Positions 1,364-45,001 of a stretch of DNA of 64,000 nt are shown here, piece by piece. Source of the stretch: Chitinophagales bacterium (lineage in GTDB: Bacteria > Bacteroidota > Bacteroidia > Chitinophagales > Chitinophagaceae); assembly GCA_038257335.1 (NCBI GenBank), contig JBBSJJ010000001.1, positions 2,589 to 66,588 on the forward strand, given 5' to 3'. A program made the position numbers and the translations under genes. The notes under the pieces were generated by a model. It had not been told where the DNA came from, ran no database searches, and saw only the letters and a program-made list of their open reading frames with translations. Within the stretch, counting starts at the first letter, position 1; every line of letters begins with the position of its first letter.

Positions 1364-2194
1364 ATGATTCATATAGTTTTTAATGAAGCCGATGTTAAGG
1401 TATTGCAAGAAGCCATTGCCATGGATGAAAGTTTAGCTGCCGGGGCAAGCCTCACAGGCGAAGTAATTCAAATAAAGGATGATTATGCAGTTGGTCCTTT
1501 GCATAATATTTACGTAGGAGAGGGCATCAATGCCCGCAAAGACTGGTGGAAAGAAGTGTTACAAGGCGGCGACTATGAAGGTAAAGTGGAGATTGGCGAA
1601 GTGGATGATACTAAGACTGCCGCCGAACTGGTGGGCACCATGCGCCGCAACGAAGAAGAACAGATTTGGATATGGGCAGCCCAAAATAAACACGATGTGA
1701 GCGGTTACTACTGGCTCCTGAATTATATGAAAGAATTCCAGGGACGGGTACACATTCTTTACCTGAACAATCTTCCCTTCTTCAATGACAAGGGGCATAT
1801 ATTTTACCCCAACTGGCTCAGTGAAATTCCGGCTAAAGAATTTTTAAAAGCCAAAAAACTGGCCAGGGAAATTACCCTGAGCGAATTTGAAGTAGACCCC
1901 GACGAGTGGACGAAAATCTGCAACGAGCACAAGGGCGTACGTTTCCTGGAAGGTGGCAAAAAGCTGGTGCAGCATGATTATGATTTTTATGACAGCGAAC
2001 TGAAGAAATTTATATCAGCCGATTGGCAAAGAGCATCTAAAATCATCAACCAGTTTTTGAGCAAAGCCAAAGAAACCACCGGGGATGCCTACATTTTGTG
2101 GAGATTGAAAACTATGATAGCGCAGGATATGTTTGATGTGCAGGGTAAAATAGAGAACATGAAAGATTTTGAAGTAAAATTAAAAAGCGCATGA
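1364..2194 (+). CDS. DUF1835-domain protein (probable C-terminal DUF3658-like region)
   Basis: N-terminal MIHIVFNE, DDYAVGPL and IWIWAAQNKHDVSGYYW patterns typical of DUF1835 proteins. Confidence 0.7.
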   Translation: MIHIVFNEADVKVLQEAIAMDESLAAGASLTGEVIQIKDDYAVGPLHNIYVGEGINARKDWWKEVLQGGDYEGKVEIGEVDDTKTAAELVGTMRRNEEEQIWIWAAQNKHDVSGYYWLLNYMKEFQGRVHILYLNNLPFFNDKGHIFYPNWLSEIPAKEFLKAKKLAREITLSEFEVDPDEWTKICNEHKGVRFLEGGKKLVQHDYDFYDSELKKFISADWQRASKIINQFLSKAKETTGDAYILWRLKTMIAQDMFDVQGKIENMKDFEVKLKSA

Positions 2195-2577
2195 AAATAA
2201 AAGGCATTCATCATGTGGCCATTTTAACCGACGACTATGAAACCAGTAAAACTTTTTATACCGGCGTCTTAGGTTTCAGTATTGTTAGAGAAACCTTTAG
2301 AGAAGATAGAAAATCTTACAAACTAGACATGGCCATCGATGGCTTGTACCAAATTGAATTGTTTTCGTTTCCCGAATATAAGGAGCGGGCTTCTTTTCCC
2401 GAGGCAAAGGGATTGCGGCATTTGGCTTTTGCGGTAGAGGACATTGAAGCGGCTGTAGATCACTTAATAGAAAAAGGGGTTGACGTGCAGGGTATAAGAG
2501 AGGATGAATTAACCAACAAAAAGTTCTGTTTTTTTTACGATCCTAACGGGCAACCGTTGGAATTGTATGAGGTATGA
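2191..2577 (+). CDS. VOC/glyoxalase family protein (YwkD-like)
   Basis: IHHVAI, GLRHLAFAVEDI and FFYDPNGQPLELYE metal-binding VOC motifs. The start overlaps the upstream stop (ATGA). Confidence 0.88.
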   Translation: MKIKGIHHVAILTDDYETSKTFYTGVLGFSIVRETFREDRKSYKLDMAIDGLYQIELFSFPEYKERASFPEAKGLRHLAFAVEDIEAAVDHLIEKGVDVQGIREDELTNKKFCFFYDPNGQPLELYEV

Positions 2578-2585
2578 GGCAGCGG

Positions 2586-3014
2586 TTCGGTTGCGCTCCT
2601 AAGGAGCGCTGGGATGTTCTCAACCTTTAATGCTACAAAGGTTTTGCCCCGATGGGGCAAGGTTCGAATGTCTAAAAGCCAATGGGTGATTTGTGCTGCT
2701 CCTTAGGAGCAGAACCTTTGTAGCATTGCGAATTTAGATTCCGCCGTGCTCCTTAGGAGCAGCACCTTTGTAGTTCGGTTGCGCTTCTAAGGAGCGCTGG
2801 GATATTCTCAACCTTTTGATGCTACAAAGGTTTTGCCCCGATGGGGCAATGTTTGAATGTCTCAAAGCCAATGGGTGATTTGTGCTGCTCCTTAGGATCA
2901 AAACCTTTGTAGCATTGCGAATTTAGATTCCGCCGTGCTCCTTAGGAGCAGCACCTTTGTAGGGGTAGAAAATTTAGATTGCGCCCTGCTCCTTAGGAGC
3001 AGAACCTTTGTAGC
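2586..3014. repeat. Array of REP-like palindromes, organised as a ~188-bp tandem duplication plus one extra unit
   Basis: Five forward units GCTCCTTAGGAGC-AG(A/C)ACCTTTGTAG at 2698, 2748, 2887 (degenerate), 2937 and 2988. Two reverse units GCTACAAAGGTTTTGCCCCGATGGGGC at 2632 and 2821. Two bare hairpins GCGCTCCTAAGGAGCGC at 2593 and 2781 (second degenerate). 2586-2773 is repeated as 2774-2962. Confidence 0.92.
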
Positions 3015-3064
3015 GTTTGTAGAAAATCGTATTTTGGATAATAAATTTTTTAAATTAATTCCAT

Positions 3065-3526
3065 ATGCCAAATACATATACCCAGCTGTTAGTACAGTTG
3101 GTATTTGCAGTAAAAGGCCGTGAAAGTTTAATAAAAGAACCAATCCGGGAGAGGGTTGAAAAATACATATGCGGTATTGCAACCCAGAAAAAGCATAAGC
3201 CACTGGCCATTTATTGCATGCCAGATCATTTACATTTTTTGATTGGTATGAATCCCAATCAGTCGATAGCTGATGTTGTAAAACAAATTAAAATCAGCTC
3301 CAATAGTGTTGTAAACGATAACCATTTAACCAAACATCCATTCTCCTGGCAGGAATCGTATGGCGCTTTTTCGTATTCAAAATCGGCCCTGGACAATGTG
3401 GTTAAATATATTTTAAATCAAAAAGAGCATCACACAAAGCCAACATTCAGGGAAGAATACCTGCAGTTTCTTAAAAAATTTGACATTGAATATGACGAAA
3501 AATACCTCTTTCAATTTTTAGACTAG
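3065..3526 (+). mobile_element. tnpA: HUH (Y1) transposase, IS200/IS605 TnpA family, probably REP-associated (RAYT/TnpA-REP-like); no TnpB
   Basis: 153 aa with LVFAVKGR, MPDHLH (HUH), WQESYGAFS and catalytic-Tyr YILNQKEHH motifs. Immediately preceded by the palindrome array. Confidence 0.88.
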
Positions 3527-3575
3527 CGCAACTAAGCAGCGATATTAGGAACATAAAGAATTATATCAACAACAC

Positions 3576-6092
3576 ATGGCAAAAAAACTAAAAGAAGAAT
3601 TCTCCCACAGCGATACCGGCATCAGTGGCCAATACAAAACCTGGTTTTTAGATTATGCCAGCTATGTAATATTAGAGCGGGCCGTGCCGGCTATTGAAGA
3701 TGGTATGAAACCCGTGCAACGGCGCATACTCCATGCCATGAAAGAAATGGATGATGGGCGATACAACAAAGTGGCCAACATCATTGGGCAAAGTATGCAG
3801 TACCATCCGCATGGCGATGCCAGCATTGGTGATGCCCTGGTAAACATGGGGCAAAAAGATTTGCTCATAGATACGCAGGGAAACTGGGGTGATGTGCGCA
3901 CCGGCGATGATGCAGCAGCACCCCGTTACATAGAAGCAAGGCTGAGCAAGTTTGCGTTGGATGTGGCCTTCAATGCCAAAACCACCAACTGGCAGTTGAG
4001 CTACGACGGTCGTAAAAATGAGCCCGTGACCTTGCCCATGAAATTTCCGATGTTGCTGGCGCAAGGTGCAGAGGGTATTGCCGTAGGACTCTCAACCAAA
4101 ATTTTGCCACATAATTTTTGTGAACTCATAGATGCTTCCATCAAATATTTAAAAGGAAAAAAGTTTGAAGTGTTGCCCGATTTTCAAACGGGTGGCACCA
4201 TGGATGCCAGCGCTTACAACGAAGGCAGGCGTGGCGGCAAAGTAAGGGTAAGAGCCATCATTGAAGAGCAGGATAAAAAAACACTCATCATCAAGAGTGT
4301 ACCCTTTGGCGTTACTACCACGCAACTCATGGAAAGTATTGTGAAGGCCAACGACCAGGGAAAAATAAAGGTTAAGAAAGTCACCGACCATACGGCCGCG
4401 GCTGTAGAAATATTTATAGAGCTGGCGCCGGGCATTTCGCCGGACATAACGATTGATGCCTTGTACGCATTTACCGATTGTGAAGTGAGCATTTCTCCAA
4501 ATGCCTGCGTAATTGTAAACAAGAAGCCGCAGTTTATGGGCGTGCCGGAGTTGCTCCGAAGTTCGGCAGACAATACCAAAGACCTCTTAAAGCAAGAGTT
4601 AGAGATAAAGCTGGCGGAGCTGCAGGAGAAATGGCATTACACTTCCCTGGAAAAAATATTCTTCGAAGAAAAGATTTACAAGGAGCTGGAGAAGAAGCAT
4701 GAGACATGGGATAAAGTACTTGCGGCCATAGACAAAGCTTTTGATCCGTTTAAAAAATTGCTCAAGAGAGACATCAGCAAAGAAGATATTGTAAAGCTTA
4801 CAGAAAAGCCGGTACGCAGAATTTACCGGCTGGATATAGACGAACTGAATGCTCAGATCAAAAACCTGGAAGCAGAGATTAAACAGGTGAAGCACGACCT
4901 TGCCAACCTCGTAGATTATGCAGTAAGCTATTATGAAAACCTGTTGAAAAAATATGGCAAGGGCAGGGAAAGAAAAACAGAAGTGAAGCAGTTTGATGTG
5001 ATCCAGGCCAAGAGCGTAGCCATTGCCAACATAAAAATCTATGTAAATTTTGCAGATGGATTTGTTGGCACCGGGTTGAAGAAAGATGAACTGATTACCG
5101 AAGTGTCGGAGCTCGATGACATCATTGCCTTTACCAAGGGCGGCGTGATGAAGGTTGTAAAAGTATCTGACAAAACTTTTATTGGCAAAGATATTTTGCA
5201 TGTGGCCGTGTTTCAAAAAAACGATGAACGTACTACTTACAACTTAGTATATGCCGATGGTAAAACGGGCGTGAGTTATGCCAAGCGTTTCAATGTAACC
5301 GGCATCACCCGGGATAAAGAGTACGACCTCACCAAAGGCTCCGACAAAAGCCGGGTGTTGTATTTTTCTGCCAACGCCAACGGCGAAGCGGAAGTGGTGA
5401 AGATCATCTTAAGCCCCAACTGCAGCGCCAAGAAAAAAGAACTGGAATTTTATTTCGAAGAACTCGAAATAAAAGGGCGGGGCAGTATTGGCAACCAGGT
5501 AACAAAATACCCCATCAAATCTGTAAAGTTCAAAGAAGCCGGCCGCAGTACACTGGATGCAAAAAAGCTATGGTTCGACAATAAGTTTGGCCGCCTGAAT
5601 GCAGATGAGAAAGGGGAGTACCTCGGTAAGTTTGATGCCGAAGATCGCCTGCTCGTAATTTATACCGATGGCAACTACGAAATCATAGACCAGGAATTGA
5701 CCCAGCGTTTTGATGTAGATAAAATACTCTTGCTGGAAAAATACATGGAGAACAAAGTGATCACTGCCGTGTATTTAGACAATGAAAAACTGCAGTTCAA
5801 CATCAAGCGTTTTAAAATAGAAACCACTACGCTCAACAGTAAATTTTTCTTCATCAAAGAAGGCAGGGAAAACCGCCTCGAAGCCGTAACCACCGACGAA
5901 ACGCCGGTGCTAAAAGTGCAGACCGGCCGTGGCGCACAATCGCACCAAACCAAATTTAAAGTAGCCAGCATGGTAGAAGTCATGGGCTGGAAGGCAGTAG
6001 GCGCCAAGCTTGTAGACTTTTCGAAATCCGTAGAAATGGAGTGGGAAAAACCAGCCGAAGATAATGGCGGGCAGGGAGAATTGTTTGGGTAG
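3576..6092 (+). CDS. parC: DNA topoisomerase IV subunit A
   Basis: DGMKPVQRRILH and YHPHGDASI motifs, plus AAPRYIEARL containing the catalytic Tyr. Confidence 0.92.
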   Translation: MAKKLKEEFSHSDTGISGQYKTWFLDYASYVILERAVPAIEDGMKPVQRRILHAMKEMDDGRYNKVANIIGQSMQYHPHGDASIGDALVNMGQKDLLIDTQGNWGDVRTGDDAAAPRYIEARLSKFALDVAFNAKTTNWQLSYDGRKNEPVTLPMKFPMLLAQGAEGIAVGLSTKILPHNFCELIDASIKYLKGKKFEVLPDFQTGGTMDASAYNEGRRGGKVRVRAIIEEQDKKTLIIKSVPFGVTTTQLMESIVKANDQGKIKVKKVTDHTAAAVEIFIELAPGISPDITIDALYAFTDCEVSISPNACVIVNKKPQFMGVPELLRSSADNTKDLLKQELEIKLAELQEKWHYTSLEKIFFEEKIYKELEKKHETWDKVLAAIDKAFDPFKKLLKRDISKEDIVKLTEKPVRRIYRLDIDELNAQIKNLEAEIKQVKHDLANLVDYAVSYYENLLKKYGKGRERKTEVKQFDVIQAKSVAIANIKIYVNFADGFVGTGLKKDELITEVSELDDIIAFTKGGVMKVVKVSDKTFIGKDILHVAVFQKNDERTTYNLVYADGKTGVSYAKRFNVTGITRDKEYDLTKGSDKSRVLYFSANANGEAEVVKIILSPNCSAKKKELEFYFEELEIKGRGSIGNQVTKYPIKSVKFKEAGRSTLDAKKLWFDNKFGRLNADEKGEYLGKFDAEDRLLVIYTDGNYEIIDQELTQRFDVDKILLLEKYMENKVITAVYLDNEKLQFNIKRFKIETTTLNSKFFFIKEGRENRLEAVTTDETPVLKVQTGRGAQSHQTKFKVASMVEVMGWKAVGAKLVDFSKSVEMEWEKPAEDNGGQGELFG

Positions 6093-6401: not shown

Positions 6402-7388
6402 TTACCTTATATCTTTTTCCACCACACCGTTGAACCCTACTACAGAGTCGGGTAGACTACCGGAATCAATTATTTGGTGGCCGACCGGGTTGTAGCTGCG
6501 GTAGCTAAACCTTTGCGCTTCCCCAGCCGGTATCTCTATAATGCTGTAGGCTTTTTTCGCCGGTTCTGAATGGCCGATGATGGGTCTTTCGCCATCGCCA
6601 ATGCAGCCTGCATTCAAAAGGCTGAGGCCATTCTTTTTGGCAGGATACCAGGCATGCTGGTGGCCGCTGATATAAAGATCTACGTTGTTGTTTTTAAAAA
6701 AGTTCAGGGCAATGTCTGCTGCCGCAATGACCTCACCTGGTTTATTTTTTGCGCCTACAATCGGGTACAAAGGCAGGTGTCCAAGCAATATTCTCAAGCG
6801 AGCCGCATGTGCAATTTTGCTGGCTAGTTGTCCTTTCATCCATTCATATACTTCCGTGGGCACTGAGGCGCCGGCAGCATCCCAGCTAAGGAAGAAAATA
6901 TTTTTGTGCAGGTAACTAAAGTAAAATGGGTAATGGCTGCTGTCAATAAAATGCAGGTTGGTCGCCTGTACATTTTCTGTCCAGAACTGTAATGCGAGAG
7001 AGCGGTCCATTGCAAACGAAGGCGAGGCATCATGGTTGCCGAGGGTAAATCCAAAAGGGATTTTTGTTTTACTCAGCGGCAGAAGTACGGTGCTTTTAAA
7101 CCCTTGCCACATCGCCCAAATATTTTCTTCACTAAGAGATTTTTTTTGGCCGGCAACCATGTCGCCTGCGCACAATATCACGTCTGGTTTGATGCGGGCA
7201 AGTTCCGCTACCACTTCAACTACTTCCTTGTTGTAAGTGACAGAACCATAACCAGAGTTCAAATCACTGATTACGGCGATTCGCAGCGGCTTACCGTTGT
7301 TGGAGATATCTGAGGTAGTTCGGGGAGCAACGCAGCCAGCCAGGATAAACAGCATTCCCAAACCAACCGCAGGTAAAATAAATTTCAT
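6402..7388 (-). CDS. Calcineurin-like metallophosphoesterase, lipoprotein
   Basis: Lipobox ILAGC. Motifs SDLN, AGDMV, LGNHD, GHLP and SGHQH. Confidence 0.85.
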   Translation of the reverse strand: MKFILPAVGLGMLFILAGCVAPRTTSDISNNGKPLRIAVISDLNSGYGSVTYNKEVVEVVAELARIKPDVILCAGDMVAGQKKSLSEENIWAMWQGFKSTVLLPLSKTKIPFGFTLGNHDASPSFAMDRSLALQFWTENVQATNLHFIDSSHYPFYFSYLHKNIFFLSWDAAGASVPTEVYEWMKGQLASKIAHAARLRILLGHLPLYPIVGAKNKPGEVIAAADIALNFFKNNNVDLYISGHQHAWYPAKKNGLSLLNAGCIGDGERPIIGHSEPAKKAYSIIEIPAGEAQRFSYRSYNPVGHQIIDSGSLPDSVVGFNGVVEKDIR

Positions 7389-7751: not shown

Positions 7752-7830
7752 CAGCATCTACAAACAGATTCCTCGTTGCGCTCCGGAAAAAATCGGGACA
7801 GGCGGGAAGACAGCACAGGTTGATCATTTG
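7752..7830 (+). repeat. 79-bp direct repeat, copy 1 (composite REP-like element)
   Basis: Matches 9044-9122 at 69/79 positions by manual alignment. Confidence 0.85.
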
Positions 7831-7899
7831 GGCCGGAGAGCCGTGGGAGCCAAGCTGGCAGACTATTCTAAAACAGTAGATATGTCATTGTGGAAGGAA

Positions 7900-7940
7900 G
7901 TGGAAGACAACGATGGGCAGGGGCGGTCATTGTCTTCCAC
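7900..7940. repeat. Hairpin GTGGAAGACAAcG...CaTTGTCTTCCAC downstream of the orphan gene (terminator or REP remnant)
   Basis: 13-bp arms with one mismatch. Confidence 0.5.
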
Positions 7941-32501: not shown

Positions 32502-32531
32502 ACAAGCCTCCCCGGGAACGGGGAGGCTTCA
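32502..32531. terminator. Bidirectional terminator stem
   Basis: AAGCCTCCCCG-GGAA-CGGGGAGGCTT between convergent genes. Confidence 0.75.
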
Positions 32532-37797: not shown

Positions 37798-37826
37798 AAA
37801 CGCAGCCGATAGGCTGCGTTTTTTTA
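37798..37826 (+). terminator. Intrinsic terminator
   Basis: AAACGCAGCC-GATA-GGCTGCGTTT followed by a T-tract. Confidence 0.8.
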
Positions 37827-44099: not shown

Positions 44100-44341
44100 A
44101 AATCACTTTCAAAGGTATAAGGTACGAAATGCTATGCCACGCTCCGCAATAAGGGCAAACATGGTTTTGCTATTTTTTTCTATACGTAAAACTTTCCATA
44201 TAAAAAACAGGCTATTTCCTGTTTTTTTAATCAACTATTAGTCTTTCTTTTACATCGGTTTTTCATAGGATATTGGATTTTAAATCGGGGCTGGATTTCT
44301 ATCCTGGCCCTTTTTTTATTTTAACCACTTAGTTTTGTACT

Positions 44342-45001
44342 ATGAAAGTTTATTTCATTAGCGGCCTGGCTGCCGATTGCCGGGTTTTTAAACACATAAA
44401 GCTACCAACAGGTTTTGAAGCGGTTTACCTGGACTGGATTTCACCCCTCAAAAATGAAAGCCTGCAGTCATATGCTTTCAGGATGGCAGAGAAGATGGAT
44501 ACGAGCCAGCCGTTTGCTCTTGTGGGCCTATCTATGGGAGGAATGATTGCCACCGAAATTGCCAATAAATTCAACCAGGCAACTTGCATTTTATTATCCA
44601 GTGTGCCCACACATAAGCAAATGCCTGGCTATTTCAAATGGGCCTATCTTTTTAATCTTCACAAAATGGTACCCATCGGGTTACTACAAAAAATCTCAAT
44701 CCTAAAACGTGGTCTGGCGCCTGACAGCAACGAAGACAGAGCGCTTCTAAAGCAGGTAATTAAAGACAGTGATCCAGCTTTTATACGGTGGGCCATGCAC
44801 GCCATCTTAGGCTGGAAGAATGAAGCTATACCAGCCTCACTCTGGCAGATACAAGGGGATAAGGATGAGATTTTGCCGATCCGCTGGGCCCGTCCTACGC
44901 ACCGGGTGCAGGGCGGCAATCATTTAATGATCATGAGTAAGGCGCAGGAACTGAATGCATTCTTAAGGGAGGCTTTGTCACCCTTGCAGCCTCGGGCTTA
45001 A
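44342..45001 (+). CDS. Alpha/beta hydrolase
   Basis: ISGLAAD, GLSMGG, QGDKD and GGNH catalytic-triad pattern. Confidence 0.88.
   Translation: MKVYFISGLAADCRVFKHIKLPTGFEAVYLDWISPLKNESLQSYAFRMAEKMDTSQPFALVGLSMGGMIATEIANKFNQATCILLSSVPTHKQMPGYFKWAYLFNLHKMVPIGLLQKISILKRGLAPDSNEDRALLKQVIKDSDPAFIRWAMHAILGWKNEAIPASLWQIQGDKDEILPIRWARPTHRVQGGNHLMIMSKAQELNAFLREALSPLQPRA

Follow-up and report, generated by a model that had tools for sequence, protein, structure and literature searches.

Directly upstream of parC, in a 64,000-nucleotide (nt) stretch of DNA from a Chitinophagales bacterium (contig JBBSJJ010000001.1; this whole stretch is called the window below), lies a gene for a Y1 HUH nuclease that is preceded by an array of short palindromes. 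A first reading of this locus, made from the sequence alone, took the two for a REP-associated tyrosine transposase (RAYT) with its REP repeats, and possibly for the source of repeats throughout the genome. Here we describe the gene, its array and their counterparts in related genomes, and conclude that the pair is a local variant of the transposase/repeat pairs already known, rather than a new repeat system at the scale of the genome.

A Y1 nuclease gene and its palindrome array

The Y1 gene (3065-3526, plus strand) is an intact open reading frame (ORF) of 153 amino acids with a TAG stop codon, which matches the Pfam family Y1_Tnp (PF01797, E 8e-26) and contains the motifs DHLH (residues 54-57), WQ (95-96) and YILNQ (115-119). 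There is neither a TnpB gene nor a second Y1 copy in the 64-kb window, so the lone nuclease gene of the sequence-only reading stands. The repeat array fills the 430-bp non-coding stretch that follows a glyoxalase-family gene (2191-2577) and precedes the Y1 ORF, and its nine palindromes lie at 2593-2609, 2644-2660, 2696-2712, 2746-2762, 2781-2797, 2833-2849, 2884-2901 (a degenerate copy with a GGATCAA arm), 2935-2951 and 2986-3002. Seven of them carry a common tail, as had been described, and the decamer of this tail, ACCTTTGTAG, has exactly seven copies in the window, all within 2633-3013, five on the plus and two on the minus strand; outside the array, a single site matches it with one mismatch. 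Relatives of the hairpin core GCTCCTTAGGAGC gave 14 strand-hits at seven sites, all within 2595-3000, where 0.96 were expected and none of 100 shuffled sequences reached 14. When the rest of the 64 kb was scanned for perfect GC-rich hairpins, no family akin to the array came up. Two long hairpins did, at 32504-32529 (11-bp stem) and 37798-37821 (10-bp stem), but both are unrelated to the array. Folded as single-stranded DNA, the array reaches -104 kcal/mol, as against -58 +/- 4 for shuffled sequences (z -10.6). Since exact tails and relatives of the core are confined to the array, the rest of the window holds no similar hairpin family and the folding far exceeds that of shuffled sequence, the palindrome array beside the Y1 gene is real. 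The 49-nt gap between the Y1 stop and parC contains no hairpin, in agreement with the earlier observation that no copy lies downstream of the gene.

The array is built of a small set of units. At its distal end is the palindrome GCGCTCCTAAGGAGCGC (2593-2609), which lacks a TTGTAG tail and is followed on the minus strand by AACCGAAC. The distal unit proper (2629-2660, minus strand) consists of TTGCCCCATCGGGGCAA, AACCTTTGTAG and CATT, and is conserved in three related loci (L001, L004 and L013). Its inverted partner is a direct unit of CTGCTCCTTAGGAGCAG and AACCTTTGTAG (2696-2723, plus strand); the extended 31-nt arms of the two (2629-2659 and 2697-2727) can pair with 37 nt between them, forming a REPIN-like doublet. 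A second direct unit, GTGCTCCTTAGGAGCAGC followed by ACCTTTGTAG (2746-2773, plus strand), closes with the GTAG that is also the end of the first copy of a 189-bp tandem duplication. This duplication spans 2585-2962 (plus strand) in two copies, 2585-2773 and 2774-2962, that are 96% identical and each end exactly at ...TTTGTAG. The second copy repeats the tail-less palindrome with one mismatch (GCGCTTCTAAGGAGCGC, 2781-2797), the inverted unit (2818-2849, minus strand, a duplicate of 2629-2660), a direct unit that is degenerate here (GCTGCTCCTTAGGATCAA with AACCTTTGTAG, 2884-2912, plus strand) and the closing direct unit (2935-2962, plus strand, a duplicate of 2746-2773). Wedged between its GTAG end and the next spacer is the mini-module GGGTAG (2963-2968, plus strand). 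The last direct unit (2986-3013, plus strand) ends 51 nt upstream of the ATG, with its hairpin 62 nt upstream, at what is the canonical outer position in the family (see below), and is followed by a second mini-module, the hairpin-less tail fragment CGTTTGTAG (3014-3022, plus strand).

Two details of the earlier description have to be amended. Because part of the array is a tandem duplication, the nine palindromes are not independent, and the two tailed units on the minus strand are inverted and combine the tail of the plus-strand units with another hairpin, TTGCCCCATCGGGGCAA. The GTAG had been placed about 10 nt 3' of the hairpin. Its position on the 3' side holds, while the distance is refined, in that it starts 7-8 nt and ends 11-12 nt past the extended stem, which is 13 nt past a 5-bp core stem. 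It is also correct that this geometry is unlike that of classical REPs, as the conserved tag follows the hairpin on its 3' side, at a constant spacing, instead of standing at the 5' foot. Two further ORFs listed for the region, of 101 amino acids (2898-3203, minus strand) and 62 amino acids (2935-3123, plus strand), run through the array and are most likely spurious, because they are built of repeat sequence and overlap the start of Y1.

The protein belongs to an orphan subclass of TnpA-Y1

Quentin, Siguier, Chandler and Fichant (2018; BMC Genomics 19:475, PMC6006769) defined TnpA-Y1 subclass 1.2 as a group of IS200-related proteins from Bacteroidetes and Cyanobacteria, of about 148 amino acids, with the motifs WQ, DH[IV]H and Y---Q--HH and a specific conserved C-terminal domain. 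Its members occur at 1.7 copies per genome with 36% identity between copies, and were reported to be without insertion sequence (IS) properties and without REP-like sequences nearby (PMC6006769). Our literature search returned no paper on the subclass after this description.

Judged by its motifs, length and C-terminal domain, the window protein is a member of subclass 1.2 and IS200-like. Its tyrosine motif reads Y115-ILN-Q119-KE-H122H123 (YILNQKEHH), that is Y---Q--HH, W95 and Q96 form the WQ motif, and the HUH motif D54HLH57 has a leucine where the definition has isoleucine or valine. In an alignment of homologs (A1) the catalytic residues, H55, H57 and Y115 among them, are invariant, and so are F128, E131, Y132, L136, K138, F139, Y147, L148 and F149 in the C-terminal domain. 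The likeness to the published subclass thus extends to a length of about 150 amino acids, a conserved C-terminal domain of about 30, a low copy number and an origin in Bacteroidota. The present family differs in having conserved flanks of a hairpin and a 13-nt tail, where the published description has none, but this mismatch concerns that description and not the definition of the protein. The automatic search in that study was for hairpins with GT[AG]G at their 5' foot (PMC6006769), and would miss the present units.

The comparison with profiles and structures points the same way. The protein scores 68.7 bits against the NCBIfam profile transpos_IS200 (NF033573), above the cutoff of 55, and 32.8 bits against REP_Tyr_transpos (NF047646), well below the cutoff of 80. 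Sequence matches in the PDB are to ISDra2 TnpA (4.7e-8), a Deinococcus paralogue (range to ~7e-7) and IS608 TnpA (7e-6), and a phmmer search of the solved structures at E<=1 gave no match to the E. coli TnpA-REP, 4ER8. An AlphaFold2 model of the protein (pLDDT 83) has ISDra2 and IS608 TnpA as its top Foldseek matches (~1e-9), with 4ER8 at rank 30; it is therefore these TnpA proteins that are closest by both sequence and fold, and they share the HUH motif, the tyrosine and the glutamine four residues later. The class-2 motif Y---NP is absent. As the tests by motif, profile and position of the tag all fail, the window protein is not a class-2 RAYT/TnpA-REP, and this part of the sequence-only reading has to be given up. 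Relatives in the databases are named 'IS200/IS605 family transposase' by PGAP and, for some, 'RayT' by JGI; an exact-sequence lookup found no record of the window protein itself.

Relatives share the hairpin-plus-tail unit

Relatives were collected from public assemblies (3153 hits, mainly in Chitinophagaceae, Bernardetia and Spirosoma, and also in Persicobacter), a further 80 loci, with 48-63% identity, came from a metagenome scan, and the comparison was made on 84 non-redundant homologous loci. An 80%-identical orthologue (L001) and one at 65% identity (L004) have the same neighbourhood as the window and arrays on the upstream side only. Both arrays begin with the window's inverted TTGCCCC...GGGGCAA unit and then have direct units with other stems (TTGCTCC/GGAGCAA and GAACTCC/GGAGTTC) and the common tail ...CTTTGTAG; stems that differ with a shared ...TTTGTAG tail are seen across L001, L004 and L008. 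In Bernardetia, where the protein is 67% identical and the neighbouring genes are others, the hairpin is CAGCTGCGTAGCTG and the tail CGTAATATTTGTAG, with three units upstream and two, inverted, downstream. The sequence-only reading had named a lack of similar flanking repeats in homologs as something that would speak against it; homologs do carry flanking repeats of the same type, with stems that co-vary.

Across the 84 loci, TTGTAG is enriched about 8-fold on the strand of the gene at positions -300 to -1, CTACAA is enriched within 100 nt past the Y1 stop, and a GC-rich hairpin lies within 250 nt of the gene in 82. Hairpin ends peak 10-19 and 60-69 nt upstream of the ATG, and 0-19 and 50-69 nt past the stop. 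The common upstream layout is an outer hairpin with its tail, about 20 nt, an inner hairpin with its tail, and the ATG; downstream, the stop codon often falls inside the tail of the inner unit, followed by the inner hairpin, about 25 nt, and a CTACAA tail with the outer hairpin. The norm of the family is thus two inverted two-hairpin modules that bracket the gene with their tails pointing inward. The site can be described as a 5-bp core stem, a 3-nt loop (often GTA) and a 13-nt tail ending in (G/A)TAG, and the consensus of the outer unit is (G/A)C(T/C)CC-GTA-GG(A/G)G(C/T) followed by G-A-(A/C)-(A/C)-T-(G/C)-T-T-T-(G/A)-T-A-G, with alternative tails, ...TGTTAATAG or ...TGTTTATAG, in some lineages.

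For a non-circular test, sites were picked by the tail alone (T[TA][GA]TAG at 25-65 nt from the gene, n=57). Of these, 38 had a perfect 5-bp stem in a single register, in which the TAG ends 13 nt past the stem; with the register shifted by 1-3 nt, only 0-1 of the 57 did. The stem columns show compensatory pairs (GC 31/AT 13; CG 21/TA 19/GC 5; CG 36/TA 7). With its register fixed and its stems compensated, the hairpin unit is, on the evidence of these alignments, a conserved structure that co-evolves with the Y1 gene.

Against this background the array of the window is a special case. In the sub-lineage of the window, L001 and L004 the downstream module has disappeared and the upstream one has expanded, and the window additionally lacks the inner upstream hairpin and has its outer upstream unit multiplied into the local array. 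That the array is one-sided, as first reported, is therefore true of the window but represents a derived state, peculiar to this sub-lineage, in a family whose norm is two-sided and inverted. Immediately after the TAG stop of the window's Y1 gene comes CGCAAC (3524-3545), which resembles the right arm and start of the tail of the tail-less palindrome (GGAGCGCAACC) and may mark a truncation of the downstream module at a TAG junction.

The gene is fixed at its locus and under purifying selection

In the window, the C-terminal part of parE (6-434) is followed by genes for a methyltransferase, a DUF1835/DUF3658 protein and the glyoxalase-family protein, and then by Y1 and parC (3576-6092, plus strand), the gene for topoisomerase IV subunit A, which is a conserved downstream neighbour and, for the mechanism considered below, context only. 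This order, with Y1 directly upstream of parC and parE usually a few genes further up, recurs in L001-6, L039, L041, L060, L067 and L069; in L041, nothing but Y1 with its repeats stands between parE and parC. Over the parC-linked loci, identity falls from 92% to 55% for ParC and from 80% to 53% for Y1. The gap between Y1 and parC is 49 nt in the window and 10 nt in L004, and the two genes probably share one transcript. A separate clade (L042/47/48/50) has another fixed neighbourhood, with a thiolase-like gene. The ratio of non-synonymous to synonymous substitution rates (dN/dS) is 0.05-0.10 in five unsaturated pairs of close orthologs and up to 0.31 in diverged pairs, which are saturated. The Y1 gene is thus single-copy and vertically inherited, at a fixed locus and under purifying selection.

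At 7813-7923 (plus strand) the window also contains a 37-amino-acid relic of ParC, 54% identical to ParC residues 798-834 and 1.7 kb past the stop of the intact parC (6092), from which it is separated by a metallophosphoesterase-like gene (6402-7388, minus strand). The relic suggests that the 3' end of parC was once the site of a duplication or an insertion.

No sign of dispersed copies

No repeat unit was found in the 64-kb window outside 2585-3022. The window comes from a soil metagenome, where unitig depth is usable although joints between diverged strains are ambiguous, and in the source run most bins of the array have a depth of 11-23, two are near zero and the last is at the level of the flanks, which is about 7.5. 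This is the depth expected from the local two- to three-fold repetition, i.e. from the local copy number. In the 84 homologous loci no cognate unit was found beyond the immediate flanks of the gene; the strict detector gave a few distant matches, and those inspected were AT-rich chance hairpins. In Bernardetia, the array of units matches only three places in a replicon of 601,782 bp that carries housekeeping genes, and within the 100 kb of it that were read directly the hairpin occurs only at the gene.

A scan with the 18-mer GGAGCAGMACCTTTGTAG of 185,579 species genomes (GTDB, one per species), a set that does not include the source genome and so gives no test of dispersal in it, returned 22 single hits, where roughly 35 are estimated by chance. 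The only true look-alike among them is in a Saprospiraceae metagenome-assembled genome (MAG; JALVEF010000018.1, our L013), at a contig end. Its cluster (~53-1072) closely resembles the array of the window, with a GCTCC hairpin that has no tail, an CTACAAAGGTTTCGTCCCTACGGGACG unit in inverted orientation and GCTCCGTAGGAGCAGCACCTTTGTAG, and no Y1 gene lies in the 8 kb examined next to it. It could be a dispersed copy, or the Y1 gene could lie past the contig end. In the sequence examined, namely the window, its read depth, the flanks of homologs and the Bernardetia replicon, there is no sign of dispersal through the genome, and the idea that the locus is a source of genome-wide repeats thus found no evidence in its favour. 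For the source genome beyond the window, dispersal at low copy number would still be compatible with these data.

Rearrangement junctions and a proposed mechanism

The ends of the rearranged pieces share a feature. In the window, both copies of the 189-bp duplication end at the ...TTTGTAG of a unit, and each of the two orphan pieces, GGGTAG and CGTTTGTAG, follows a GTAG. In three metagenomic strains with an identical Y1 protein (L001, L002 and L003), the arrays differ from one another in modules that without exception end in TAG. Among these modules are the first 84 nt of the gene, present in one or two additional copies that end at the tail-like CCTGTTAG, and pieces of 16-17 nt that start exactly after the GTAG of a hairpin loop (CCGTAG/GCGCAA, with the junction at the stroke). 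The 84-nt copies, at 2667-2748 in L001, 1461-1543 and 1705-1787 in L002 and 190-272 in L003, are annotated as ORFs of 47-49 amino acids. Since the make-up of the arrays differs among strains with an identical protein, the arrays are still changing, and the position of the junctions, right after TAG, suggests that cleavage and rejoining may take place there.

IS608 TnpA binds subterminal hairpins on single-stranded DNA, and at the right end of the element it cuts 3' of a tetranucleotide that lies 10 nt 3' of the foot of the hairpin (PMC3201880). The present unit resembles this right end in that a subterminal hairpin is followed, some 10 nt past the 3' end of its stem, by a short conserved motif. 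We propose, with moderate confidence, that the locus is a fixed, single-copy gene for an IS200-like Y1 nuclease of subclass 1.2 together with its own cognate single-stranded DNA sites, which rearrange locally. The enzyme would bind the folded hairpin on single-stranded DNA and cut 3' of TAG, in the geometry of the IS608 right end. Exchange of partners between two cut sites could then give local duplications, deletions and truncated modules, with the enzyme, rather than replication slippage, making the rearrangements, and the outcome would be a changing array beside the gene with no copies scattered over the chromosome. Right-end geometry fits a class-1 enzyme and would account for the position of the tag, which in REPs of the E. 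coli type is found at the 5' foot instead.

Several points weigh against this proposal. Binding and cleavage by enzymes of subclass 1.2 are themselves conjectural, the junctions amount to a handful of rearrangements in repetitive DNA, where the phase of periodic repeats is ambiguous, and replication slippage between hairpins could give similar products. About one third of the tail-anchored sites have no perfect stem, and the strict detector found units in just 27 of 81 loci, although variant tails account for many of the misses. Given tails that face the gene, cleavage at the two outer TAGs would set the gene free but leave its hairpins behind, which matches neither the transposition scheme of IS608 nor any other that has been tested. 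Pairing of the 4 nt 5' of the stem with the TAG tail, in the manner of IS608, was considered and rejected, as there is no conserved guide tetranucleotide 5' of the hairpin foot and only an A there, in 26 of 38 units. Finally, the TTTG of the tail resembles the -33 promoter element of Bacteroidota.

Alternative explanations

One alternative is that the locus is an ordinary insertion sequence of the IS200 family, with the two-hairpin modules as its ends, and that the window copy is decaying and immobilised and its array functionless debris. The score above the transpos_IS200 cutoff and the name given by PGAP to the relatives speak for it, as do the compact unit of about 650 bp bracketed by inverted modules and the contexts that vary by lineage, TerC/ABC in Bernardetia, the thiolase-like gene in L042/47/48/50 and parC in Chitinophagales. 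Members of IS200/IS605, however, are multi-copy, and here, in a comparison made on partial genomes, the gene is single in the 64-kb window, lacks TnpB and stays at one locus over a long evolutionary time, kept in place while ParC diverges to 55% identity. In the Bernardetia replicon one full-length relative was found; a second place matched by tblastn was not located, and none lies in the 100 kb read directly. Decay is also difficult to reconcile with a dN/dS of 0.05-0.1 and catalytic residues that are invariant even where one end is missing, with stems maintained by compensatory change, or with arrays that still differ among strains of identical protein. Moreover, the left and right ends of IS200/IS605 elements such as IS608 are asymmetric and lie on one strand, with the cleavage sites outside and a guide tetranucleotide 5' of the hairpin, whereas here the two-hairpin modules are symmetric and inverted, their tails point inward and the guide is not conserved. 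We regard this explanation as unlikely.

It is also conceivable that the hairpins act at the level of RNA or transcription, as attenuators, stabilisers of the mRNA or promoter-associated elements of a Y1-parC transcript, and are not substrates of the nuclease. The units do lie in the 5' leader region and, in relatives, right at the start and stop codons; co-transcription of Y1 with parC is probable, given the short gaps between them, and the presumed likeness of TTTG to the -33 box would fit as well. We nevertheless consider this reading improbable. No terminator-like site (T run) occurs in 2100-3700, matches to promoters are at chance level, and an Rfam scan of the region gave just two sub-threshold, miRNA-like chance matches. 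The same unit recurs in inverted form both on the downstream side of the gene and at the far end of the upstream arrays; an RNA element carried on a single transcript would have no need of such symmetry at the level of DNA. In addition, the units accompany the Y1 gene into unrelated gene contexts, and their perfect palindromes and strict 13-nt distance to TAG are as in HUH substrates.

A true REP/RAYT system, with units copied to many intergenic sites and the array by the gene as their master cluster, is very improbable. The REPtrons of E. coli, Pseudomonas and Stenotrophomonas (Nunvar 2010; Bertels & Rainey 2011; Ton-Hoang 2012; Messing 2012; Corneloup 2021, PMC8266576) do resemble the present locus, since they too pair a single-copy, vertically inherited HUH gene with its own co-evolving flanking palindromes, in clusters and inverted doublets beside the gene (37 nt apart in the window), and have a GTAG-type tag; the Saprospiraceae cluster with no Y1 gene nearby, though at a contig end, and the JGI label 'RayT' could be read in the same sense. 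However, the protein of REPtrons is of class 2, whereas here it is of class 1, without Y---NP and under the cutoff of the RAYT profile, their tag GT[AG]G is at the 5' foot of the hairpin, whereas here it lies 3' at 13 nt, and they have dispersed REP copies, none of which was detected here in the sequence scanned: neither units nor related hairpins in the rest of the 64 kb, a depth equal to the local copy number, no cognate unit outside the immediate flanks in 84 loci, three places only in the Bernardetia replicon, and hits at about chance level in the species genomes. Among Bacteroidetes, Di Nocera (2013) reported no REPs of the GTAG type. The TIRYT/TIRtron families of that study are, according to PMC6006769, class 2.1 proteins with long terminal inverted repeats, and so are not this family. 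A CRISPR-like reading was rejected, as the 'spacers' are themselves repeated and are related between strains.

The Bernardetia replicon (NZ_CP147018.1) contains, at 494249-494851 on the minus strand (44249-44851 of our L113), a gene for a 200-amino-acid class-2 Y1 protein with the motifs NHVH and YIHNNP, similar to subclass 2.6 of Quentin et al. This gene is flanked by palindromes of its own that are different (CACGCTTCTGAGGAAGCGTG and GTTCAGTTCTGAGGAACTGAAC), which means that two unrelated pairs of Y1 gene and palindromes coexist on this replicon.

Implications for subclass 1.2

In its 2018 description, subclass 1.2 was an orphan, with IS200-like sequence but neither the behaviour of an IS nor REP-like partners, and for this reason it had no proposed substrate. 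The present data supply a candidate, a hairpin with a 13-nt TAG tail, for example CCCTGCTCCTTAGGAGCAGAACCTTTGTAGCGTT, with a predicted cut 3' of the TAG. The main value of this work is therefore a concrete prediction of substrate and cut site for an orphan HUH subclass; its practical impact is modest, as it adds one more variant to a well-studied superfamily.

A bolder view, which we offer as speculation and think rather doubtful, is that subclass 1.2 stands next to IS200/IS605 and RAYT/REP as a third type of domesticated HUH system. Its nuclease would act only on the modules around its own gene, and the heritable variation in copy number and structure that it would create in the array, by cutting and rejoining 3' of TAG, would amount to a self-contained local DNA switch. 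If this were true, the switch directly upstream of parC in Chitinophagales could modulate how strongly the Y1-parC transcript is expressed, or the topology of the DNA nearby. More generally, the locus shows that a partnership between a transposase and its palindromes can last for a long time at one place without seeding the genome, and such persistence at a single locus bears on the origin of RAYT/REP systems from IS200-like elements.

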